From Gammaproteobacteria bacterium (GTDB lineage: Bacteria > Pseudomonadota > Gammaproteobacteria > CAISUE01): a DNA stretch of 64,000 bases. The DNA lies in NCBI GenBank assembly GCA_021156105.1, contig JAJNBD010000011.1, positions 48,654-112,653 of the forward strand, given 5' to 3'. The notes under the pieces were generated by a model that worked only from the letters and a program-made list of their open reading frames with translations, was not told where the DNA came from and made no database searches. This document shows positions 29,993 through 50,983 of this stretch, piece by piece; positions within the stretch are counted from its first letter, which is position 1, and each line of letters opens with the position of its first letter. A program made the position numbers and the translations under genes.

Positions 29993-31351
29993 TCAACGCG
30001 ACCATTCCCGCGCTTTTGCGCGAGTTTCCTGGTCAATTGCTTGGATAGCTGTTAAATCCTGCGGATTAATCTCTGGTGCCGCTTCTAATATTGCTGTATT
30101 TAAACGATAAATATCTGTAAATAAAATTTCATGATTTAAAAAACGTTCGCTAGCAACTTCATTAGCAGCGTTCAAGACATTAGCAGCACAACCGCCTTTC
30201 TTTAAAGCTTCATAAGCTAGCATCAAGCAAGGATAACGCTGTAAATCCATTGCCTGAAAAGTTAAAGGCATTCTTGTTAAATCTAGCGAGGGAACGGTTG
30301 TCGCAATACGATTAGGCCAAGCCATCGCATAAGCAATGGGCGTACGCATATCTGGTTGGCCTAATTGCGCTAATACCGAAGCGTCATCATAATAGACCAT
30401 TGAATGGATGATGCTTTGAGGATGCAATAAAACTTCTAAGCGATCTGCTGGCACACCAAACAAATAATAAGCTTCAATGACTTCTAAAGCTTTATTCATC
30501 ATGGTTGCAGAATCTAGAGTGATTTTTTTTCCCATTGACCAGTTAGGATGCGTACAAGCAAACTCTGGCGTAACATCTTGAAGCTTATCGAAAGCCAGAT
30601 CGCGCGTTGCGCCACCGGATGCGGTTAAGACAATTTTTGAAATGCCGTAGTTTTGGGCTTGAGAATAGCTTCGCCCCCTCATCCCCGGCCCTTCTTCCCG
30701 GCCAGAAAAAGTTTGGGCGCTTCGCCCCCTCATCCCCGGCCCTTCTCCCCGGAGGGGAGAAGGGAGAGGATCAGACATCCCTCTCCCCTCCGGGGAGAGG
30801 GACCGAGGGTGAGGGGAAGATTCTTGCGCCATCTCTGGAAACAATCGCCCAGCCAAAAAACCTTCAGGTAAACATTGGAAAATAGCGCTATGTTCACTAT
30901 CAACAGGAATAAGTTGTGCTTGTGAATCCGCTAATGTTTTTAAGACTAAATCACCTGCCATAACTAATGGCTCTTTATTGGCAAGCAAAACTTTTTTATT
31001 CGCTTGCAAAGCCGCTAATACTGGACGCAAACCTGCCGCACCAACAATTGCGGCCATAACGATATCCACTTCATTTGCCGAAGCAACTTGGCATAGCGCC
31101 TCTTCACCCACCAATACTTCACAAGCTAGTGTAAGACCAGCAATTTTTTCCCGAAACAGTTTAGCCGCCTGATCACTAGGTAACACAACATAATGTGGCT
31201 TAAAGCGTAAGCATTGCTCAATAAGGGCACCTATCTGTTTATAAGCCGTTAGTGCAAAAACCTCATATTGCTCTGAGTGATGCTCGATAACATCTAAAGT
31301 GCTTAACCCTATAGAGCCTGTTGAACCAAGTATCGTTATCTTTTTTCTCAT
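29993..31351 (-). CDS. dxr: 1-deoxy-D-xylulose-5-phosphate reductoisomerase with in-frame repeat insertion
   Basis: LGSTGSIG, LANKE, PVDSEH, LTASGG, HPNWSMG.KI..DSATMMNK.LE, HPQSIIHSMV, NAANE. Confidence 0.96.
   Translation of the reverse strand: MRKKITILGSTGSIGLSTLDVIEHHSEQYEVFALTAYKQIGALIEQCLRFKPHYVVLPSDQAAKLFREKIAGLTLACEVLVGEEALCQVASANEVDIVMAAIVGAAGLRPVLAALQANKKVLLANKEPLVMAGDLVLKTLADSQAQLIPVDSEHSAIFQCLPEGFLAGRLFPEMAQESSPHPRSLSPEGRGMSDPLPSPLRGEGPGMRGRSAQTFSGREEGPGMRGRSYSQAQNYGISKIVLTASGGATRDLAFDKLQDVTPEFACTHPNWSMGKKITLDSATMMNKALEVIEAYYLFGVPADRLEVLLHPQSIIHSMVYYDDASVLAQLGQPDMRTPIAYAMAWPNRIATTVPSLDLTRMPLTFQAMDLQRYPCLMLAYEALKKGGCAANVLNAANEVASERFLNHEILFTDIYRLNTAILEAAPEINPQDLTAIQAIDQETRAKAREWSR
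30668..30816. repeat. GC-rich BoxC-like palindromic repeat array inside the dxr coding sequence
   Basis: 28-bp direct repeat at 30668 and 30719 (51-bp period) plus an inverted unit at 30776-30816; near-identical to 36474-36633. Confidence 0.9.
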
Positions 31352-31353
31352 AA

Positions 31354-32166
31354 TTAGCGGTAATAAATAGCAATTATCATTAAACCAGCCGCATAGACAG
31401 GCGCAGCAAAAAACAAACTATCTAAACGGTCTAGCAAGCCACCATGGCCGGGTAATAAGCCGCCACTGTCTTTACAATCAGCCATGCGCTTCATCATACT
31501 TTCAAATAAATCGCCGTAAACACAAGCAATAAAAGTCACGGCGTTTAACAAAACTGTCACTAAGAAATGAGGGAAATCTAAGCGATAACAAATCGCTTCA
31601 ATAATCGTTAACACAAACACTGCCATTGCTGCGCCTTTAAAGCCTTCCCAAGTTTTCTTTGGGCTAACGAGTGGGGCTAATTTATTTTTGCCAAAAAACC
31701 GCCCGCTAAAATAAGCAGCAATATCTGCTGTCCAAACAATTAACAATAACATTAATAAGTGTGTGCTATCAGCTGCTTTAAAACGAATAATGTTTAAGCT
31801 ATACCAGCACGTAACAAAGAGTAAAAGCCCAAGCGCATACCACCAAGCCTCGGATAAAGAAAACTGCCCTTGCCTTTGCTGATAATGATGAACTAAAACG
31901 CATAACACAATGACACCCAGACTCATTACATATAAATAAATTGCCATTGGTAAAAAGATCACAGCAAAACATAGCAAAGCAATTAGCAGTAAATAAAGCG
32001 CCTGCTCATACCAAGTTTTCATTTTCATTAAACGCGTCCATTCCCACCCACAACCTAACATGATTAATCCAAGGATGAGTTGAAAAGGCAAAAGAGGTAA
32101 ATAAAAAATAGCGAATAGCGCTAAAGGAATTAAGACAAGCGCGGTAAGAAAGCGGTGTAAAAGCAT
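31354..32166 (-). CDS. cdsA: Phosphatidate cytidylyltransferase
   Basis: ADIAAYFSG, SPKKTWEG, GDLFES..KR...KDSG.LLPGHGGLLDRLDS. Confidence 0.96.
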   Translation of the reverse strand: MLLHRFLTALVLIPLALFAIFYLPLLPFQLILGLIMLGCGWEWTRLMKMKTWYEQALYLLLIALLCFAVIFLPMAIYLYVMSLGVIVLCVLVHHYQQRQGQFSLSEAWWYALGLLLFVTCWYSLNIIRFKAADSTHLLMLLLIVWTADIAAYFSGRFFGKNKLAPLVSPKKTWEGFKGAAMAVFVLTIIEAICYRLDFPHFLVTVLLNAVTFIACVYGDLFESMMKRMADCKDSGGLLPGHGGLLDRLDSLFFAAPVYAAGLMIIAIYYR

Positions 32167-32249
32167 AAATAAGGCATCCTGTTTTTGCCCCCTTATTCTC
32201 GCATCAGCAAGAACCTATTTGGAGCATTTTTTTAAAATTTTAACATTAT

Positions 32250-32945
32250 CTAACCAACATCCCCAAACCGCCTTTGTCGCTTAGTGTACTCTTCGAGAGC
32301 CTTTTTTAGCCCTGCGGCATCAAAGTCCGGCCATAATGTATCGGTAAAATAAAGTTCCGCATAAGCAATTTGCCAAAGCAAAAAGTTACTAATGCGGATT
32401 TCGCCACTGGTGCGGATAAATAAATCGACTGGCGGTAAATCCCCTGTACTTAAATGCATTTGGAAATTTTCTGGCGTAAATTCTGGTTTTGCTTCATGAC
32501 AAATTTTTTCACATGCTTGGAGAATATCCCACTGCCCGCCATAATTTAAGGCAACAACAACCTGCATATGATGATTTTGACATGTCAGCGTTTCTGCCTC
32601 TTGAATACGCTGCTGCAAGTTGGCATTTAGTTGAGAATGGTCGCCAATGAAACGAATACGAATATTATTTGCGTTTAGCTCAGAAATCTCTTGTTCAAGC
32701 CGCGTCAGAAACATACTCATTAAATGATCAACTTCTTCTTGCGGGCGCCGCCAGTTCTCGCTACTAAAAGCAAATAATGTTAAAACTTTAATCCCTATCT
32801 CAGCAGAAGCTTGAATAATTTCTTTAACCGTATCCGCTCCGGCTTTATGCCCCATTATGCGTGGTAAAAAACGCTTTTTAGCCCATCGCCCATTCCCATC
32901 CATCACAATTGCTACATGAGTAGGAACATTATTTTGTTTTGTCAT
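32250..32945 (-). CDS. uppS: Undecaprenyl diphosphate synthase
   Basis: HVAIVMDGNGRWA, FSSENW.RP..EV, IRTSGE.RISNFLLWQ.AYAE. Confidence 0.97.
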   Translation of the reverse strand: MTKQNNVPTHVAIVMDGNGRWAKKRFLPRIMGHKAGADTVKEIIQASAEIGIKVLTLFAFSSENWRRPQEEVDHLMSMFLTRLEQEISELNANNIRIRFIGDHSQLNANLQQRIQEAETLTCQNHHMQVVVALNYGGQWDILQACEKICHEAKPEFTPENFQMHLSTGDLPPVDLFIRTSGEIRISNFLLWQIAYAELYFTDTLWPDFDAAGLKKALEEYTKRQRRFGDVG

Positions 32946-34089
32946 ATTTCACCATAAAATAAAACCAAGTATATCCTAGCACTGCAGAAATAAAAGAACC
33001 CGTTAATATTGCCGCTTTTACTTCACTCAGAATATGAAAATTAGCATGCTGGAACGCTAAGTCACCCAAGAGTAGACTCATTGTAAATCCGATACCACAG
33101 AAAAGGCTTACCCCAAATAAATTTCTCCAGTTAATTTGTGTAGGCAGCCTGGCTAAATTCAGCTTAACAGCCAAATAAGAAAATAAAAATACACCTAAAG
33201 GCTTACCTAATACTAAGCCTGCTATGATTCCCCAAGCCAATGTCGAAAACAATCCTTCAGCATCAGCGTGCCCAAAACTAACCCCAGAGTTAGCAAGCGC
33301 AAATAGCGGCAAAATGCCATAGGTTACCCAAGGATGTAGCCTCTCATACAATTGCCGCAAGAGACAAGGCTGGCTTCGCAAAGGGACACAAAACGCAACA
33401 AATACGCCAGTAATTGCCGCATCAATACCTGCTTGTGCAACCAAATACCATAAAACAACACCTGCTAATAAGTAATAGCGTAACTTATTAATATGAAAAA
33501 AGTTAAACGCCCAAAGCAATAAGAAAACAAGCACTGCCATCTCTAACATCAATAGGTGGAGCTGATGCGTATAAAAAATCGCGATAATCACAATCGCCCC
33601 AAGGTCATCGAAAATTGCTAGCGCTAATAAAAACAGCTTGAGCCCAACAGGAATTTTCTTTCCAAAAAGTTGTAATACTGCCAATGAGAAAGCAATATCG
33701 GTCGCCAAAGGTACCGACCACGCTGGCCAATAATGTGGGGAATTTCGATTGATCAGTAAAAATATTAGAGCAGGAATACACATACCGCCTAAAGCAGCAA
33801 TCCCTGGCAGTAAAGCTTTTCGAACAGTGTTTAAATCGCCTTCTAAAATTTCTGCTTTAATTTCTAAGCCGACATTTAAGAAAAATAAAGCCATTAAGCC
33901 ATGATTAACCCAATAAATAAATGAGTGTTTAAGCGGAATTCCTAAAAGCGCCGTTGAAGCAAAAAATTCATGATAGAAAACTGAATATGGAGAATTACTT
34001 ATAGCTAATGCCAAAACTGCCATAGCTAGCAATAATACACCAGTGAAAGCATCGGCACGTAAAATATTTCTAATCCAATTAAAAGGCAT
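32929..34089 (-). CDS. nhaA: Na+/H+ antiporter NhaA
   Basis: ATDIAF, LAIFDDLGAI, LFALANSGV, GKPLG, CGIGFTMSL. Confidence 0.95.
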   Translation of the reverse strand: MPFNWIRNILRADAFTGVLLLAMAVLALAISNSPYSVFYHEFFASTALLGIPLKHSFIYWVNHGLMALFFLNVGLEIKAEILEGDLNTVRKALLPGIAALGGMCIPALIFLLINRNSPHYWPAWSVPLATDIAFSLAVLQLFGKKIPVGLKLFLLALAIFDDLGAIVIIAIFYTHQLHLLMLEMAVLVFLLLWAFNFFHINKLRYYLLAGVVLWYLVAQAGIDAAITGVFVAFCVPLRSQPCLLRQLYERLHPWVTYGILPLFALANSGVSFGHADAEGLFSTLAWGIIAGLVLGKPLGVFLFSYLAVKLNLARLPTQINWRNLFGVSLFCGIGFTMSLLLGDLAFQHANFHILSEVKAAILTGSFISAVLGYTWFYFMVKYDKTK

Positions 34090-34092
34090 AAA

Positions 34093-34692
34093 CTAATTTT
34101 TCACCTCAAGAAATTCTCTGATAGCAATTAACTTGCCATGAAAGAAATGGCTAGCTTCTGGTACATTCAAAATACGTTGAAAATGCTGAGTAGAAGCCCA
34201 AGCAAGGATTTGGTCGGTTGGGACAACCTCGTCTTGCGCCGCAACAATTAATTCACATGGACAGTTCGGCAACTGGAGACTCATAAAGCCTTCATATTGG
34301 GCGGGAGGCGCAACCAGCAGTAAATAAGCTGGTTTAAAGCGCTGGCAAAACTTTAAGGCAACATAAGCCCCAAAAGAAAATCCTCCGAGATAAATAGGTT
34401 GCTCCCCTAAGTTTTCTTCTGCCCAATGGATAACCGCTTGTAGATCATCTTGTTCACCATCACCATTACCAAAAGAACCCGTGCTTTCTCCCACACCCCG
34501 AAAATTAAAATGTATCGTGCTTAACCCCAAGGCTTGCCAAGCTTTAACAATGCTGGACACAACTTTATTGCTCATGGTTCCGCCATATAAAGGATGCGGA
34601 TGACACACAATGCCAATACCCTTGTGCTGAGGGGAGCGACTGACAATTGCTTCAAGTGTTCCGTGAGCAACGGGTATAAAATATTTTTCCAT
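34093..34692 (-). CDS. Alpha/beta hydrolase
   Basis: HPHPLYGGTM.NKVV, FNFRGVG.S.G, GFSFG, HFF. Confidence 0.9.
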   Translation of the reverse strand: MEKYFIPVAHGTLEAIVSRSPQHKGIGIVCHPHPLYGGTMSNKVVSSIVKAWQALGLSTIHFNFRGVGESTGSFGNGDGEQDDLQAVIHWAEENLGEQPIYLGGFSFGAYVALKFCQRFKPAYLLLVAPPAQYEGFMSLQLPNCPCELIVAAQDEVVPTDQILAWASTQHFQRILNVPEASHFFHGKLIAIREFLEVKN

Positions 34693-34768
34693 GGTAGTCC
34701 ATAATCTTTTAAAAATTGTAGCACAGTTTATGATAAACTATTGCCCACTTTACACATGAGAAAATCCA

Positions 34769-36439
34769 ATGGCAGAATACGTTTTTACCATGAATGGCGT
34801 GGGCAAAGTTGTCCAACCTAATAATAAAGTTATTTTACGGGATATTTATCTTTCGTTTTTCCCAGGTGCTAAAATTGGCGTACTCGGTTTAAATGGTGCC
34901 GGAAAATCGACGCTATTGCGCATTATGGCAGGTATTGATAAAGATATTATCGGTGAAGCGCGTCCACAGCCTGGTATTCAAATTGGTTATCTACCTCAAG
35001 AACCACAATTAGATCCAAATAAAACCGTTCGCGAAGAAGTTGAAGGCGGCCTTAAAAAAGTATTAGATAAATTGCATCGCTTTAATGAAATCAGCATGAG
35101 GTTTGTAGAACCCATGTCTGACGACGAAATGAATAAGTTATTAGAAGAGCAAGGCGAGCTACAAACTGAAATCGATAATATGAATGGCTGGGAGGTCGAG
35201 CGTCAACTAGAAGTTGCCGCAGATGCTTTGCGTTTGCCGCCTTGGGAAGCTGAAATTAAGAATTTATCAGGTGGTGAAAAACGTCGTGTGGCATTGTGCA
35301 AATTATTGCTTTCCAAACCTGACATGTTATTGCTTGACGAACCAACCAACCACTTAGATGCCGAGAGTGTTGCTTGGTTAGAGCGCTTCTTACATGAATA
35401 CCCAGGTACAGTGGTTGCTGTTACCCATGATCGTTATTTCTTAGATAACGTTGCCGGTTGGATTCTAGAATTAGATCGCGGCCATGGTATTCCTTATGAA
35501 GGTAACTACACAACTTGGTTAGAGCAAAAAGAAAAACGTTTAGAAATTGAAGAAAAACAAGAAACCGCACATCAAAAAGCCATGAAAGCGGAATTGGAAT
35601 GGGTTCGTCAAAATCCAAAAGGACGTCAAGCGAAAAGTAAAGCCCGTTTGGCACGCTTTGAAGAAATGAACTCGCAAGAGTTTCAAAAACGCAATGAAAC
35701 TTTGGAAATTTATATTCCACCAGGTCAACGGCTTGGTGATTTGGTTGTTGAAGCAAAACATCTTTGCAAAGCTTTCGGCGATCGCATGTTAATTGATGAT
35801 TTAAGCTTCTTAATGCCTAAAGGCTCTATTGTTGGTGTAATTGGTCCAAATGGCGCCGGTAAATCTACCTTCTTAAAAATGTTAATCGGCAAAGAGAAGC
35901 CAGATAACGGTGAACTCATCATTGGTGAAACCGTACAATTAGCTTATGTTGATCAAAGCCGCGACCATTTAGATGGTAAGAAAAATGTCTGGGAAGAAGT
36001 TTCTGATGGTTTGGATTTTATCCAAGTCGGTACTTATCAAATTCCTTCACGTGCTTACATCGGCCGCTTTAATTTTAAAGGTGCAGATCAACAAAAATTA
36101 GTGAAAGATTTATCAGGTGGTGAACGTAACCGTTTACATTTAGCGAAACTGTTAAAAAGTGGCGGCAACGTATTATTACTTGACGAACCAACTAACGACT
36201 TAGACGTCGAAACTTTACGTGCGTTAGAGGAAGCGCTGCTTAATTTCGCAGGCTCTGCCATTGTGGTATCGCATGACCGCTGGTTCTTAGACCGTATTGC
36301 AACACATATCTTAGCCTTTGAAGGTGACAGCAGGGTTACTTGGTTTGAAGGTAACTATACTGAATACGAAGCGGATTATTTAAAACGTGTCGGTGATGCA
36401 ACACCCCATCGAATTAAATATAAGAAAATTGATTTGTAG
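34769..36439 (+). CDS. ettA: Energy-dependent translational throttle ABC-F protein EttA
   Basis: [23 protein letters not shown], two ABC domains, [19 protein letters not shown]; 556 aa. Confidence 0.96.
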
Positions 36440-36473
36440 TACTACTGCGCTTTCTCTTTGGGAGGTGTGGGCT

Positions 36474-36636
36474 GCCCCCTCATCCCCGGCCCTTCTCCCC
36501 GGTGGGGAGAAGGGAGTGGTGTTCTTTTAGACTTTGGGGGGGGTGCCTGCCCCCTCTCCCCGGCCCTTCTCTCCGTAGAGGAGAAGGGGCGTCATCCCTC
36601 TCCCCACCGGGGAGAGAGACCGAGGGTGAGGGGGCA
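36474..36636. repeat. Cluster of three BoxC-like GC-rich palindromic units (two direct, one inverted)
   Basis: gccccctcatccccggcccttctccccggtggggagaagggag; gccccctctccccggcccttctctccgtagaggagaaggg; catccctctccccaccggggagagagaccgagggtgagggg. Confidence 0.9.
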
Positions 36637-36696
36637 GGCGCGGCTGCCCTCCCCCAGTGAGAAAAAACCCCGAGAATAAGGGAGAAATGTGACGCA

Positions 36697-37146
36697 TTAT
36701 TTAATTGATAGCGTCAATTCAAACTCAGCCACTGTTTCTTCTGGGGTTTCGATTGCATAAGCTTTAACATACACGGGAATATTGACACGCTTTTTTTCTG
36801 CAATTACTTTTTCAATTGCCTCTTGAATGCCCGCCTCATCCGAGCACTCAAAACACAAATCGTCATAGGCACGCTTTAAAAAGTTTGCTTTAAAATCTTT
36901 GAACTGCACATTTAAAGACTCTTGAGTTTGCTGAATTAAATAGTAAGCCAATAAACCCGCGGCAGCGTCAGCACCAATAGCTAGCGCACCAAAATACATC
37001 GACTTTAGATGATTCTGATTTTGCGATAAAAAAGGAATTAGGATTTTACACCGATGCTGATTTAACTCTTGAACTTTAAGCGCCGAATATTCAATCATTG
37101 GCACTTGAGATTTAAGCCATGCCTCAATATTTTTGATCTGCTCCAT
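36697..37146 (-). CDS. Hotdog-fold thioesterase-like protein (DUF4442/YiiD C-terminal-like)
   Basis: NQNHLKSMYFGAL..GAD.A.G, FKDFKANFLKRA. Confidence 0.8.
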   Translation of the reverse strand: MEQIKNIEAWLKSQVPMIEYSALKVQELNQHRCKILIPFLSQNQNHLKSMYFGALAIGADAAAGLLAYYLIQQTQESLNVQFKDFKANFLKRAYDDLCFECSDEAGIQEAIEKVIAEKKRVNIPVYVKAYAIETPEETVAEFELTLSIK

Positions 37147-47834: not shown

Positions 47835-47956
47835 GCCCCCCTCTCCCCATCAGGGAGAGGGGCTTGGAGTGAGGGAGAGAACGTATCAAAATGCAAAGTG
47901 GTAGCGTCGTCCCCTTACCCGGCGCTTTGCGCCACCCTTTCCCCACGCGGAGAGGG
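47835..47956. repeat. Two BoxC-like palindromic units between dnaK and dnaJ
   Basis: ccctctccccatcagggagaggggcttggagtgaggg and ccccttacccggcgctttgcgccaccctttccccacgcggagaggg. Confidence 0.75.
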
Positions 47957-49910: not shown

Positions 49911-50966
49911 ATGTATCATTTAGCGTTCACGATTGCCATCGCTTTTTTTGTTAGCCTCATGCTTATTCATGCATTGAAGCCAGTTGCACAAAAAATTGAT
50001 TTGGTTGATCGCCCTAATCAGAGAAAACTACATAAAGGCGCTGTCCCTTTAGTGGGTGGCATTGCTATTAGCCTAGGTTTTTGTATTGGTATTTTGGCGC
50101 TAAATATTAGCCTTGCACCTTATCGTGCTTTATTTGCCGGATATTTATTTTTAACTGTCATTGGCATTATGGATGACTTTAATGAACTAACGCCCCGCTT
50201 AAGAATTATTGCACAAATTGTCGTGGCATTATTAGCAACCTGTTGGGGCGGCGCCACCCTGCTACACTTAGGGCATATCTTTTCAAATTCATTTTCTTTT
50301 TATTTAGGGCCTTGGGCTATTCCTATCAGCGCAGTTGCATTGATCGCCCTGATTAATGCGAATAACATGCTGGATGGCGTTAATGGCCTTGCAGGTGGTA
50401 GCAGTTTTGCAACATTAGCTTGCATTGATTGGATTGCCTGGCGCACTCATGCTGTCAATGATTTCCAGATATTGCTTATCTTGTTAAGCTGTGTATTTGC
50501 TTTCCTTTGTTTTAATTTTCCGGTATTAAAATATCGTAATCGCCTAGTATTTCTTGGCGATGCTGGCAGCACAGGCTTAGGCTTAATGATGGGCTGGTTT
50601 GGCATTCAGCTATCTCAAATCCATCAGGCTTTTTTTAAACCTGCTTATTTGCCCTGGTTATTAATCTTACCCATTTTTGACTTAACTTCCGTAACACTGC
50701 GGCGCGCCTTAGTTAAGCGCGTATCCCCACTAACTGCTGACCGCGAACACGTTCATCATCTGTTACAAAGCATGCGACTTAGAGGCTCAATTACCGCCTT
50801 GATTCTTGTACTCTTTGCTTTAGCAGGAGGACTTATTAGCATTTTTATGGCAGAATATCGCTTTCCAGAAACCGAGGCTTTTAGCCTATTTCTGGTATTA
50901 TTGCTTGCCTATTGCATAGGCACCAATATTTATTGGCAAAGAAACACCCCTCTTCCCTCTGGGTAG
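49911..50966 (+). CDS. wecA: Undecaprenyl-phosphate GlcNAc-1-phosphate transferase (WecA/MraY family)
   Basis: LVDRPNQRKLHKGAVPLVGG, DD, NANNMLDGVNGL, VFLGDAGS, ADREHVHH. Confidence 0.88.
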   Translation: MYHLAFTIAIAFFVSLMLIHALKPVAQKIDLVDRPNQRKLHKGAVPLVGGIAISLGFCIGILALNISLAPYRALFAGYLFLTVIGIMDDFNELTPRLRIIAQIVVALLATCWGGATLLHLGHIFSNSFSFYLGPWAIPISAVALIALINANNMLDGVNGLAGGSSFATLACIDWIAWRTHAVNDFQILLILLSCVFAFLCFNFPVLKYRNRLVFLGDAGSTGLGLMMGWFGIQLSQIHQAFFKPAYLPWLLILPIFDLTSVTLRRALVKRVSPLTADREHVHHLLQSMRLRGSITALILVLFALAGGLISIFMAEYRFPETEAFSLFLVLLLAYCIGTNIYWQRNTPLPSG

Positions 50967-50983
50967 AAGGGCTAGGGGTAAGG
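50947..50983. repeat. BoxC-like unit overlapping the wecA stop codon
   Basis: cccctcttccctctgggtagaagggctaggggtaagg. Confidence 0.6.

Follow-up and report, generated by a model that had tools for sequence, protein, structure and literature searches.

A BoxC-like repeat family with in-frame copies in dxr and six other genes of a gammaproteobacterium, and its association with a YcjD-like nuclease gene

The 64,000-nucleotide stretch analysed here (the window), from contig JAJNBD010000011.1 of a Gammaproteobacteria bacterium from soil, contains dxr, the gene of 1-deoxy-D-xylulose-5-phosphate reductoisomerase (Dxr), an antibiotic target, with a palindromic repeat array rich in guanine plus cytosine (GC) inside its reading frame. 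In our best explanation, which we consider highly probable, this array began as an inverted doublet of a triplex-type repeat of the BoxC kind, was enlarged later by a 51-bp tandem duplication, and would form part of a surface loop in an intact and needed enzyme. The repeat family would have invaded this lineage, and the copies that lie in frame in dxr and in six other conserved genes would be the neutral survivors of that invasion. In this genome and in many others, the repeats are found beside or together with genes for YcjD/DUF559 nucleases.

The repeat array inside dxr

The dxr gene is the last of a uppS-cdsA-dxr run, in which the two neighbours match Prenyltransf and CTP_transf_1. Its product matches three Pfam families above their cut-offs (PF02670, 158.3 bits; PF08436, 114.8; PF13288, 128.2), and the PF08436 match starts only at residue 231, corresponding to profile position 17, because the insert cuts this domain. 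The segment FQCLP, which ends at residue 162, and GISKIVLTASGG, which starts at 236, are 73 residues apart, versus 15 residues in the equivalent interval of E. coli Dxr (3r0i) by our own count from the alignment, where query residues 3-164 pair with chain residues 14-175 and query residues 227-448 with 180-402. The insert has a GC content of 64.3%, against 41.8% in the remainder of dxr.

Within the insert, a 34-nt direct repeat (30668-30701 and 30719-30752) is 97% alike at a spacing of 51, and two 38-nt inverted arms (30726-30763 and 30779-30816) are 87% complementary. The 27-mer at 30726-30752 has 3 matches in the window at up to 3 mismatches, compared with 0 in 100 shuffles. The array has an intergenic sister in the same window: 30724-30766 differs from 36474-36516 at 1 of 43 bases, and 30776-30816 from 36593-36633 at 2 of 41. 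The individual units, named A to C, are listed in Table 1; units C and B are predicted to pair in a hairpin of ~45 bp. Rfam was also tried as a source of identity for 30500-37000, and it returned only microRNA-model matches of 19-44 bits against cut-offs of 58-105, which we regard as hairpin noise.

Much of this had been described in an initial annotation made from the sequence, and our measurements agree with it on the 73 residues versus about 15 in E. coli, on the GC-rich array with a 51-bp duplication and an inverted unit, and on the one-base and two-base differences from the intergenic copies. It had placed the array at 30668-30816, and the limits set by nhmmer are slightly wider. It had also placed the insert just after the DSEH motif (residues 151-154); the insert does follow this motif, but starts some 20 residues beyond it.

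Table 1. Features of the window, and repeat-derived inserts in the proteins of the genome
Feature	Position	Strand	Evidence and remarks
dxr (1-deoxy-D-xylulose-5-phosphate reductoisomerase), 452 aa	29993..31351	-	open reading frame, Pfam and Foldseek
Three-unit triplex-motif (BoxC-like) array, in frame, 168 bp	30660..30827	.	nhmmer locus C12:79313-79480; encodes about residues 175-231; not in relatives
Unit A, degenerate, 3' hairpin arm lost; from the 51-bp tandem duplication	30660..30713	+	40.2 bits; triplex-motif test failed; absent in P0002 (88% identical)
Unit B, near consensus, triplex motif intact	30716..30767	+	57.2 bits; antisense reading ...GEGPGMRGRS
Unit C, inverted, second sequence type, triplex motif intact	30776..30827	-	read as SPHPRSLSPEGRGM; profile and motif test
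Sister array, intergenic, unit order '+ + -' as in dxr	36473..36637	.	nhmmer locus C12:85126-85290; between ABC-F ATPase gene and DUF4442 gene
Single unit, dnaK-dnaJ spacer	47836..47889	-	nhmmer locus C12:96489-96542; flanked by HSP70 and DnaJ open reading frames
Single partial unit	50945..50983	-	nhmmer locus C12:99598-99636
Dxr			insert of 52 residues
DNA polymerase III alpha (DnaE)			insert of 59 residues
ValS			inserts of 25 and 9 residues
LeuS	C8:183676-186222		inserts of 11 and (decayed) 23 residues, the latter by protein alignment only
PheS			insert of 13 residues
ComEC			inserts of 21 and 152 residues; five tandem copies
QueE-like protein			insert of 69 residues; NCBIfam matches sub-threshold only

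Dxr was found in 25 of 30 relatives, and in all 25 it matches as two adjacent pieces (query ~2-176 and 231-450) with no insert between them, which supplies the empty site that the initial annotation had proposed to look for. In the same-genus genome G001 the two pieces, at 62-68% identity, are only 6 nt apart. Eighteen aligned relatives (19 loci were fetched, and L012 was excluded by the filter on open reading frames) have a clean 52-residue gap opposite the insert. By contrast, P0002, a Dxr of 433 residues from a separate metagenome assembly that is 88% identical in the alignment, has this insert in the same position, minus the 17-residue repeat and 2 further residues. P0002 is the only protein longer than 410 residues among the 120 best Dxr database matches; the other matches listed have 386-410 residues, those that bear a name come from Pseudomonas and the like, and the four others that were aligned (P0003-P0006) have no insert. 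Since P0002 carries the insert at the same site, the insertion predates the split from its lineage. As judged from these alignments, the doublet appears to have entered dxr between the split from G001 and the later one from the lineage of P0002, and the 51-bp duplication appears to be later than the doublet and private to this genome. Two further searches added little: a metagenome scan with P0002 gave 80 loci with a top identity of 52%, and the contig of P0002 was not among them; a protein search with the insert alone (residues 174-230) gave 6 candidates, none of which was scored, and is uninformative on the frequency of such peptides.

It could be argued that a repeat from elsewhere was mis-joined into dxr, as the genome is metagenome-derived and its 15 contigs hold about 95 repeat copies. 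The stretch is present in two soil-metagenome runs from two studies, and the genome may stem from one of these runs. In both runs, 30300-30746 and 30787-31200 are each matched by a long contig with 0 differences; the contigs that reach into the array have lengths of 19.7 and 8.5 kb on one side and of 5.6 and 5.7 kb on the other. These contigs (Logan) end inside the array, and the 40 bases at 30747-30786 are bridged by no contig of either run, since the repeat interrupts the assembly graph. For the order of the units within the array we therefore depend on the assembly and on P0002, which is a weakness of our explanation. The concern over misassembly raised in the initial annotation is thus answered by public contigs at both outer junctions and stands for the inner 40 bases. 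The contigs, the separately assembled P0002 and the kept frame, alongside seven other in-frame cases in six further genes, make an assembly artefact very unlikely.

The enzyme itself is predicted to be intact. In the AlphaFold model of Dxr (mean predicted local distance difference test, pLDDT, 89.1; predicted template modelling score 0.86), residues 181-231 are the only segment with a pLDDT below 50 and are predicted to be coil; this low value is partly expected, because one other aligned sequence alone covers the insert. Foldseek aligns the model to E. coli Dxr (1jvs_B) with a template modelling score of 0.92 and a root-mean-square deviation of 2.3. The model, of a kind that had been suggested initially, indicates that the Dxr fold is kept and that only the insert is disordered, in a surface loop. 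The columns that are invariant among 61 Dxr sequences are all retained, including G9-G15, D151 S152 E153 H154, S245 G246 G247 and H268-W271, and the frame is open, in line with the earlier statement that frame and catalytic motifs are preserved. The initial annotation had also raised the case of a non-functional dxr in a genome without the rest of the methylerythritol phosphate pathway; this genome has a single dxr, and Dxs, IspG and IspH are present and uninterrupted, so this objection fails.

The repeat family in the genome and its coding inserts

The array in dxr belongs to a large family. The genome (2.39 Mb in 15 contigs, 39.6% GC, 95.5% complete) gave 126 nhmmer matches in a profile search, which correspond to 95 non-overlapping units at 38 loci. 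Twenty-two loci have more than one unit, and in 18 of these, units converge as a '+ -' pair, one arm of which is often present in several tandem copies; the tandem arrays have periods of ~51 to 152 bp, and their units carry ~15 extra bases at the tail end. The family is restricted to this lineage among the close relatives: a 24-base core has 51 matches here at up to 3 mismatches, 0 in the three same-family genomes G001-G003 (completeness 86, 99 and 58%), and 1-6 in 4 of 27 other relatives.

Seven of the 38 loci lie in frame inside long open reading frames, a count that the initial annotation had proposed to make. The hosts (dxr, dnaE, valS, leuS, pheS, comEC and a gene for a QueE-like protein) were identified by Pfam, and the insert sizes in Table 1 were taken from protein alignments with orthologues. 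All inserts are absent from the G001 orthologues and, where these were found, from those of G002, G003, G007 and G015. The DNA profile misses the 23-residue insert of LeuS because of its decay, so the count of older insertions may be too low. Host genes read the units in five or more combinations of orientation and frame, and so there is no single 'designed' reading frame; by our own reading, stops are absent from four of the six frames of the consensus unit. All eight inserts in the seven genes have a length divisible by three and are stop-free in the host frame. The initial annotation had supposed that the element adds peptide sequence to proteins, and the in-frame segments in seven proteins bear this out at the level of the genes; that they are translated is suggested by frame and absence of stops.

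We found no gene split by an array. Upon in-silico excision at the 31 other loci, 12 long frames ran across the junction, all of them between two complete genes; the spacers concerned include atpD/atpC, atpA/atpG, atpB/atpE, dnaK/dnaJ, gatA/gatB and skp/lpxD. The ATP synthase operon thus has arrays in three of its spacers (C3:105905-106168 in atpD/atpC, C3:112765-112970 in atpA/atpG and C3:116115-116156 in atpB/atpE). The genic share of the loci, 7 of 38, contrasts with the ~86% of the genome that lies in long frames (binomial p about 1e-20), as selection against most genic insertions would leave.

Dxr of normal length could also be made if the array were removed before the mature protein, as by an intron-like or intein-like process or by translational bypass. 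The predicted mRNA fold over the dxr insert is very stable (-112 kcal/mol, z -5.4), which would suit such a removal. Yet removed inserts would need neither the length divisible by three nor the stop-free frame that all eight have. Moreover, no array was found to break the frame of a gene, Rfam gave no intron beyond its microRNA-model noise, and the Pfam scan gave no intein domain. We consider removal highly improbable.

We propose instead the following course of events. The repeat family would have invaded the lineage after its split from the nearest genome relative and multiplied to about 95 units at 38 loci; it presumably arrived horizontally together with a nuclease gene, described below. 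An inverted doublet would have landed in the surface loop of Dxr, and one of its arms would then have been duplicated over 51 bp. Inserts in tolerant loops with a length divisible by three would survive as translated, disordered loops rich in Pro, Gly, Ser and Arg, and the other genic insertions would be purged by selection. Such rare genic survivors are possible because the unit is GC-rich and stop-free in four of six frames.

An unlikely alternative is that the insert, derived from a repeat by chance, is now a selected, lineage-specific loop of Dxr with a function in partner binding, localisation or regulation. The insert is in frame in two lineages at 88% identity, and its shared part has diverged about as far as the rest of the protein, with 5 substitutions and one 2-residue indel in ~33 residues. 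Furthermore, units inside genes show no greater decay than those between genes: the triplex-motif test described below is passed by 14 of 18 and 68 of 77, respectively, and the scores are 39.9 and 42.4 bits (p 0.54). Equal decay and retention in two lineages fit recency or concerted evolution, but would also fit some selected role. Against a function stand the DNA of the insert, one or two bases from intergenic copies, the predicted disorder of the loop, the use of different frames and hence different peptides in the seven genes, and the fact that no relative outside the lineage needs the insert.

Other observations weigh against our explanation as well. The predicted mRNA fold over the dxr insert could hamper translation. 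Inspection by eye of the sequence on either side of 17 doublet or array loci, with no statistical test, revealed no target-site duplication, and no transposase was found beside the units. A short terminal motif resembling GTGCCAC is common to the ends of 17 '+...-' loci; no related insertion sequence was found. The initial annotation had called the element recently active. The family does look like a young, lineage-specific expansion with very similar copies, but the insertion in dxr, being shared with P0002, is not itself recent.

Relation to BoxC and other known repeats

In each unit, a C-rich tail is followed by a pyrimidine arm, which a 3-nt loop joins to the complementary purine arm; on the opposite strand it reads as a hairpin, a short loop and a second G-rich block that mirrors the first. 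By eye, the blocks of the main unit are CCCTTCTCCCC / GGGGAGAAGGG / GGGGATGAGGGG, with arms of 11 nt. This is the architecture of the BoxC repeats, known in E. coli since the 1990s and present in hundreds of genomes; we know of no origin, mover or function for them. According to Holder et al. 2015, BoxC was later named PIT elements and TMECO, intrastrand triplex formation of TMECO was shown in vitro, and the pattern is CCCTCNCCC N3-6 GGGNGAGGG N3 GGGNGAGGG (PMC4666352). By eye, the main unit of this genome does not have this pattern; the blocks of unit C match it, with a second loop of 5 rather than 3. Because of the 11-nt arms and the unmatched exact pattern, we regard the units as a variant of the BoxC/PIT/TMECO intrastrand-triplex repeats, judged from their sequence, and not as TMECO proper. 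The BoxC-like character proposed initially is thus supported, as a variant.

A generic triplex-motif finder of our own (9-nt arms, at most 1 and at most 2 mismatches) detected 84 motifs in the genome, against 0 in a shuffled contig, and 82 of the 95 units pass its test, including units B and C of dxr. The family shares with BoxC/PIT/TMECO the two complementary arms, one of pyrimidines and one of purines, the G-rich block in mirror symmetry, the many near-identical copies, the frequent pairing of inverted units, the spread over distant bacteria and the lack of a transposase nearby. It differs in its stems (11 nt here versus 9), in the ~15 extra tail bases and tandem arrays, and above all in location. 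Holder et al. give 23 TMECO copies for E. coli K-12, 'always located intergenically', with five inverted pairs and no mobility gene found nearby (PMC4666352), whereas 7 of 38 loci are genic here.

Outside the relatives, the exact 24-base core occurs in at least 122 genome stretches from Cyanobacteria, Planctomycetota, Chloroflexota, Bacteroidota and Alpha-, Beta- and Gammaproteobacteria. That a sequence shared by several phyla has multiplied in one lineage of this group points to horizontal arrival, and the identity of a 24-mer over such distances calls for either horizontal transfer or a common factor that recognises it. At 10 of the 122 foreign loci listed, a frame continues for 70 codons or more in both directions; the majority look like chance frames of GC-rich DNA, and a few may be real.

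A close parallel in mode of life is that of the Rickettsia palindromic elements, which are palindromic selfish repeats in frame within unrelated housekeeping genes and yield a fold-compatible peptide (PMC10969869). The same mode is seen here, as the initial annotation had suggested, with eight in-frame inserts in seven unrelated conserved genes; the fold was checked for Dxr alone. Repeat family, host class and size differ, the likeness is by description and not by sequence, and the Rickettsia elements are said to carry one conserved reading frame, versus several frames here (PMC10969869). The ERIC and RU repeats of enterobacteria and QMITE1 of Coxiella are likewise small open-frame repeats that overlap or fuse with annotated genes, but they resemble miniature inverted-repeat transposable elements, with terminal inverted repeats and, for QMITE, target duplications, and their hosts are mostly non-essential or hypothetical genes (PMC2759123, PMC5896051). 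Repetitive extragenic palindromes (REPs, with REPINs) also occur as short GC-rich singletons, inverted doublets and arrays, and their RAYT gene is a single-copy enzyme gene that is bracketed by its own inverted repeats and co-occurs with them (PMC3333891, PMC2817692). The gene bracketed here is different, coding for a YcjD/DUF559 nuclease of the Vsr-like PD-(D/E)XK type and not for an HUH Y1 transposase.

Yeast mitochondria have mobile GC clusters, which are likewise GC-rich palindromes in an AT-rich genome that can sit in frame; they belong to an organelle and have no sequence relation to the present family. In-frame selfish repeats are therefore known already, in Rickettsia and to a lesser degree with ERIC/RU and QMITE1, and so are BoxC/TMECO repeats; the residence of the latter in the coding sequence of essential genes and their proposed partnership with a nuclease are new. 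We found no published report of BoxC/TMECO in coding sequence or with a YcjD partner, as judged from titles and abstracts in a search whose scope excluded most subscription journals. Triplex repeats can invade coding sequence and would lengthen essential enzymes, namely Dxr, DNA polymerase III alpha and three tRNA synthetases, and the picture of 'selfish DNA in proteins' drawn from Rickettsia would extend to another class of repeats and another class of bacteria.

A YcjD-like nuclease gene beside the repeats

The two largest arrays of the genome lie outside the window, at C9:155442-155850 and C9:156272-156568, where they are mutually inverted and face each other across 420 bp. The gap contains an open reading frame of 115 residues (C9:155872-156216), the only strong DUF559 match in the genome (PF04480, 144.5 bits), with 48% identity to E. 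coli YcjD (E 6e-36) and a match to the 'endonuclease-like protein' of PDB 3hrl (E 1.8e-26); it does not reach the cut-off of 218 of NCBIfam PRK09767 (104.6 bits). The best-scoring units of the genome are those beside this gene. YcjD-like proteins are described as predicted PD-(D/E)XK nucleases akin to Vsr, and the protein of 3hrl, their only relative with a solved structure, is uncharacterised. No activity of YcjD is known to us.

Of 400 genomes of the class, 92 have homologues of the nuclease; G001 and G002 have none. At the 29 best foreign gammaproteobacterial homologue loci, triplex motifs are present at 20, against 0 of 37 control loci (145 kb), where motif finder and control loci are of our own making; from the repeat counts per genome, chance would account for about 1 locus. 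Relative to the direction of the gene, a '+' motif stands directly upstream in 17 of the 29 loci and a '-' motif directly downstream in 15, or in 16 with one that overlaps the gene end, and both are present in 12 or 13. These flanking motifs are mostly -9 to +50 nt from the gene ends, and the repeat sequence varies between genomes. In three metagenome-assembled genomes (Sedimenticolaceae, Algiphilus and Sphingomonadales), 6 of 8 nuclease genes are flanked, partly by the repeat type of the present genome. At two such loci in Algiphilus and Sedimenticolaceae (L299, L300) and at a further one (L268), two repeat types alternate in arrays beside the nuclease gene; both types also occur here, including units B and C of dxr, and the arrangement recalls the type A/type B pairs of E. 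coli.

Gene and repeat are also associated at the level of whole genomes. Of the 400 genomes, 71 have both, 21 the gene only, 56 the repeat only and 252 neither (odds ratio 15.2, Fisher p 3e-25); without three genomes marked unpublished the counts are 68, 21, 56 and 252 (odds ratio 14.6, p 4e-24), and these p-values overstate the case because related genomes are not independent. At the foreign loci of the 24-mer core, a homologue is found within 300 nt at 5 of the 122 listed.

The association can be seen in E. coli K-12 as well. A TMECO copy (record 1351205-1351239 in L298), listed as number 9 in Table 1 of Holder et al., is located 168 nt downstream of ycjD; the chance that 1 of 23 copies falls within 400 nt of this gene is about 0.006. 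The text of Holder et al. never mentions ycjD, and Table S2 of its supplement, on flanking genes, may name it (PMC4666352). The segment with ycjD and the repeat is present in 3346 of 5426 E. coli genomes, and in one strain without it (L338) the fabI-sapF gap holds a TetR/RND/MFS efflux operon instead. A candidate partner nuclease that also exists in E. coli K-12 makes an old question testable at the bench.

In Cyanobacteria, 72 of 151 genomes have homologues, and motifs are found within 300 nt at 20 of 30 loci. Motifs are present at 12 of the 13 loci at which a long frame includes the nuclease domain, and there a whole bracketed cassette (repeat - DUF559 - repeat) appears to be in frame within restriction-modification genes of Type ISP, MmeI-like, Eco57I-like and DUF1156 kinds. 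The open reading frames with a cassette have 450 to 1571 codons (L311, L312, L316, L321, L325, L327, L331, L335, L336, L337), and the match to the Type_ISP_C domain falls into two stretches in both Type ISP cases. It is therefore possible that DUF559 'fusions' in cyanobacteria are insertions. Such fusions, and proteins that carry repeat inserts, are easily misread as new domains in annotation.

On the strength of these associations, our hypothesis is that the YcjD/DUF559 nuclease is the most likely agent of spread or upkeep of the repeats. It might spread the repeat as RAYTs do REPs, or it might be encoded by a homing-type gene that targets the repeat. We tentatively propose that BoxC/PIT/triplex repeats could well be the cis part of a widespread selfish system of which the Vsr-like nuclease would be the trans part, in the manner of RAYT and REP. 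The minimal unit would be repeat - gene - inverted repeat, of ~430 bp, and doublets and arrays without a gene would be its non-autonomous offspring. As the ends are stop-free, both forms could settle in frame inside genes, the doublets in dxr, dnaE, valS, leuS, pheS and comEC of this genome and the whole cassettes in the restriction-modification genes of cyanobacteria.

It is also possible, though we find it somewhat doubtful, that the nuclease does not mobilise the repeats, and that the gene is a homing-type passenger, that the repeats are signals of expression or termination, or that both simply collect in variable spacers. The brackets come in two opposite geometries, with tails towards the gene at most gammaproteobacterial loci and hairpins towards the gene at many cyanobacterial ones, which leaves both a spreading and a homing role of the nuclease possible. 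The upstream repeat ends few bases from the start codon, and Holder et al. link such repeats to variable loci (PMC4666352). The association is, moreover, incomplete, which weakens the proposed link: 9 of the 29 gammaproteobacterial loci have no repeat, 9 of 41 genomes with at least 20 copies have no homologue, and the pattern is missing from 21 genomes that do have the gene. A Stenomitos genome (G402) has the 24-mer and no YcjD-like match at 1e-6, and a Rhodopirellula gene (L302) has no repeat by the motif test. Against a nuclease that does not mobilise the repeats stand the 20 of 29 loci where about one is expected, the bracket, which is kept although the repeats vary in sequence from genome to genome, the odds ratio of 15 across genomes, and the placement of the top-scoring units of this genome around the gene.

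RAYTs were considered as movers in this genome and set aside. It has two genes with a Y1_Tnp domain (PF01797), at C3:62076-62888 and C14:233629-234120, and neither has a unit within 40 kb. The second is a RAYT-like Y1 transposase frame that appears to be shortened at its C-terminus; the stretch before it translates like a different REP type, and we presume that a second repeat system may exist here. Two GC-rich islands, C14:223180-223243 and C14:223364-223422, lie 180 bp apart in one frame of 207 codons and specify a near-identical Arg-rich peptide. They were missed by our repeat profile and belong to another repeated element.

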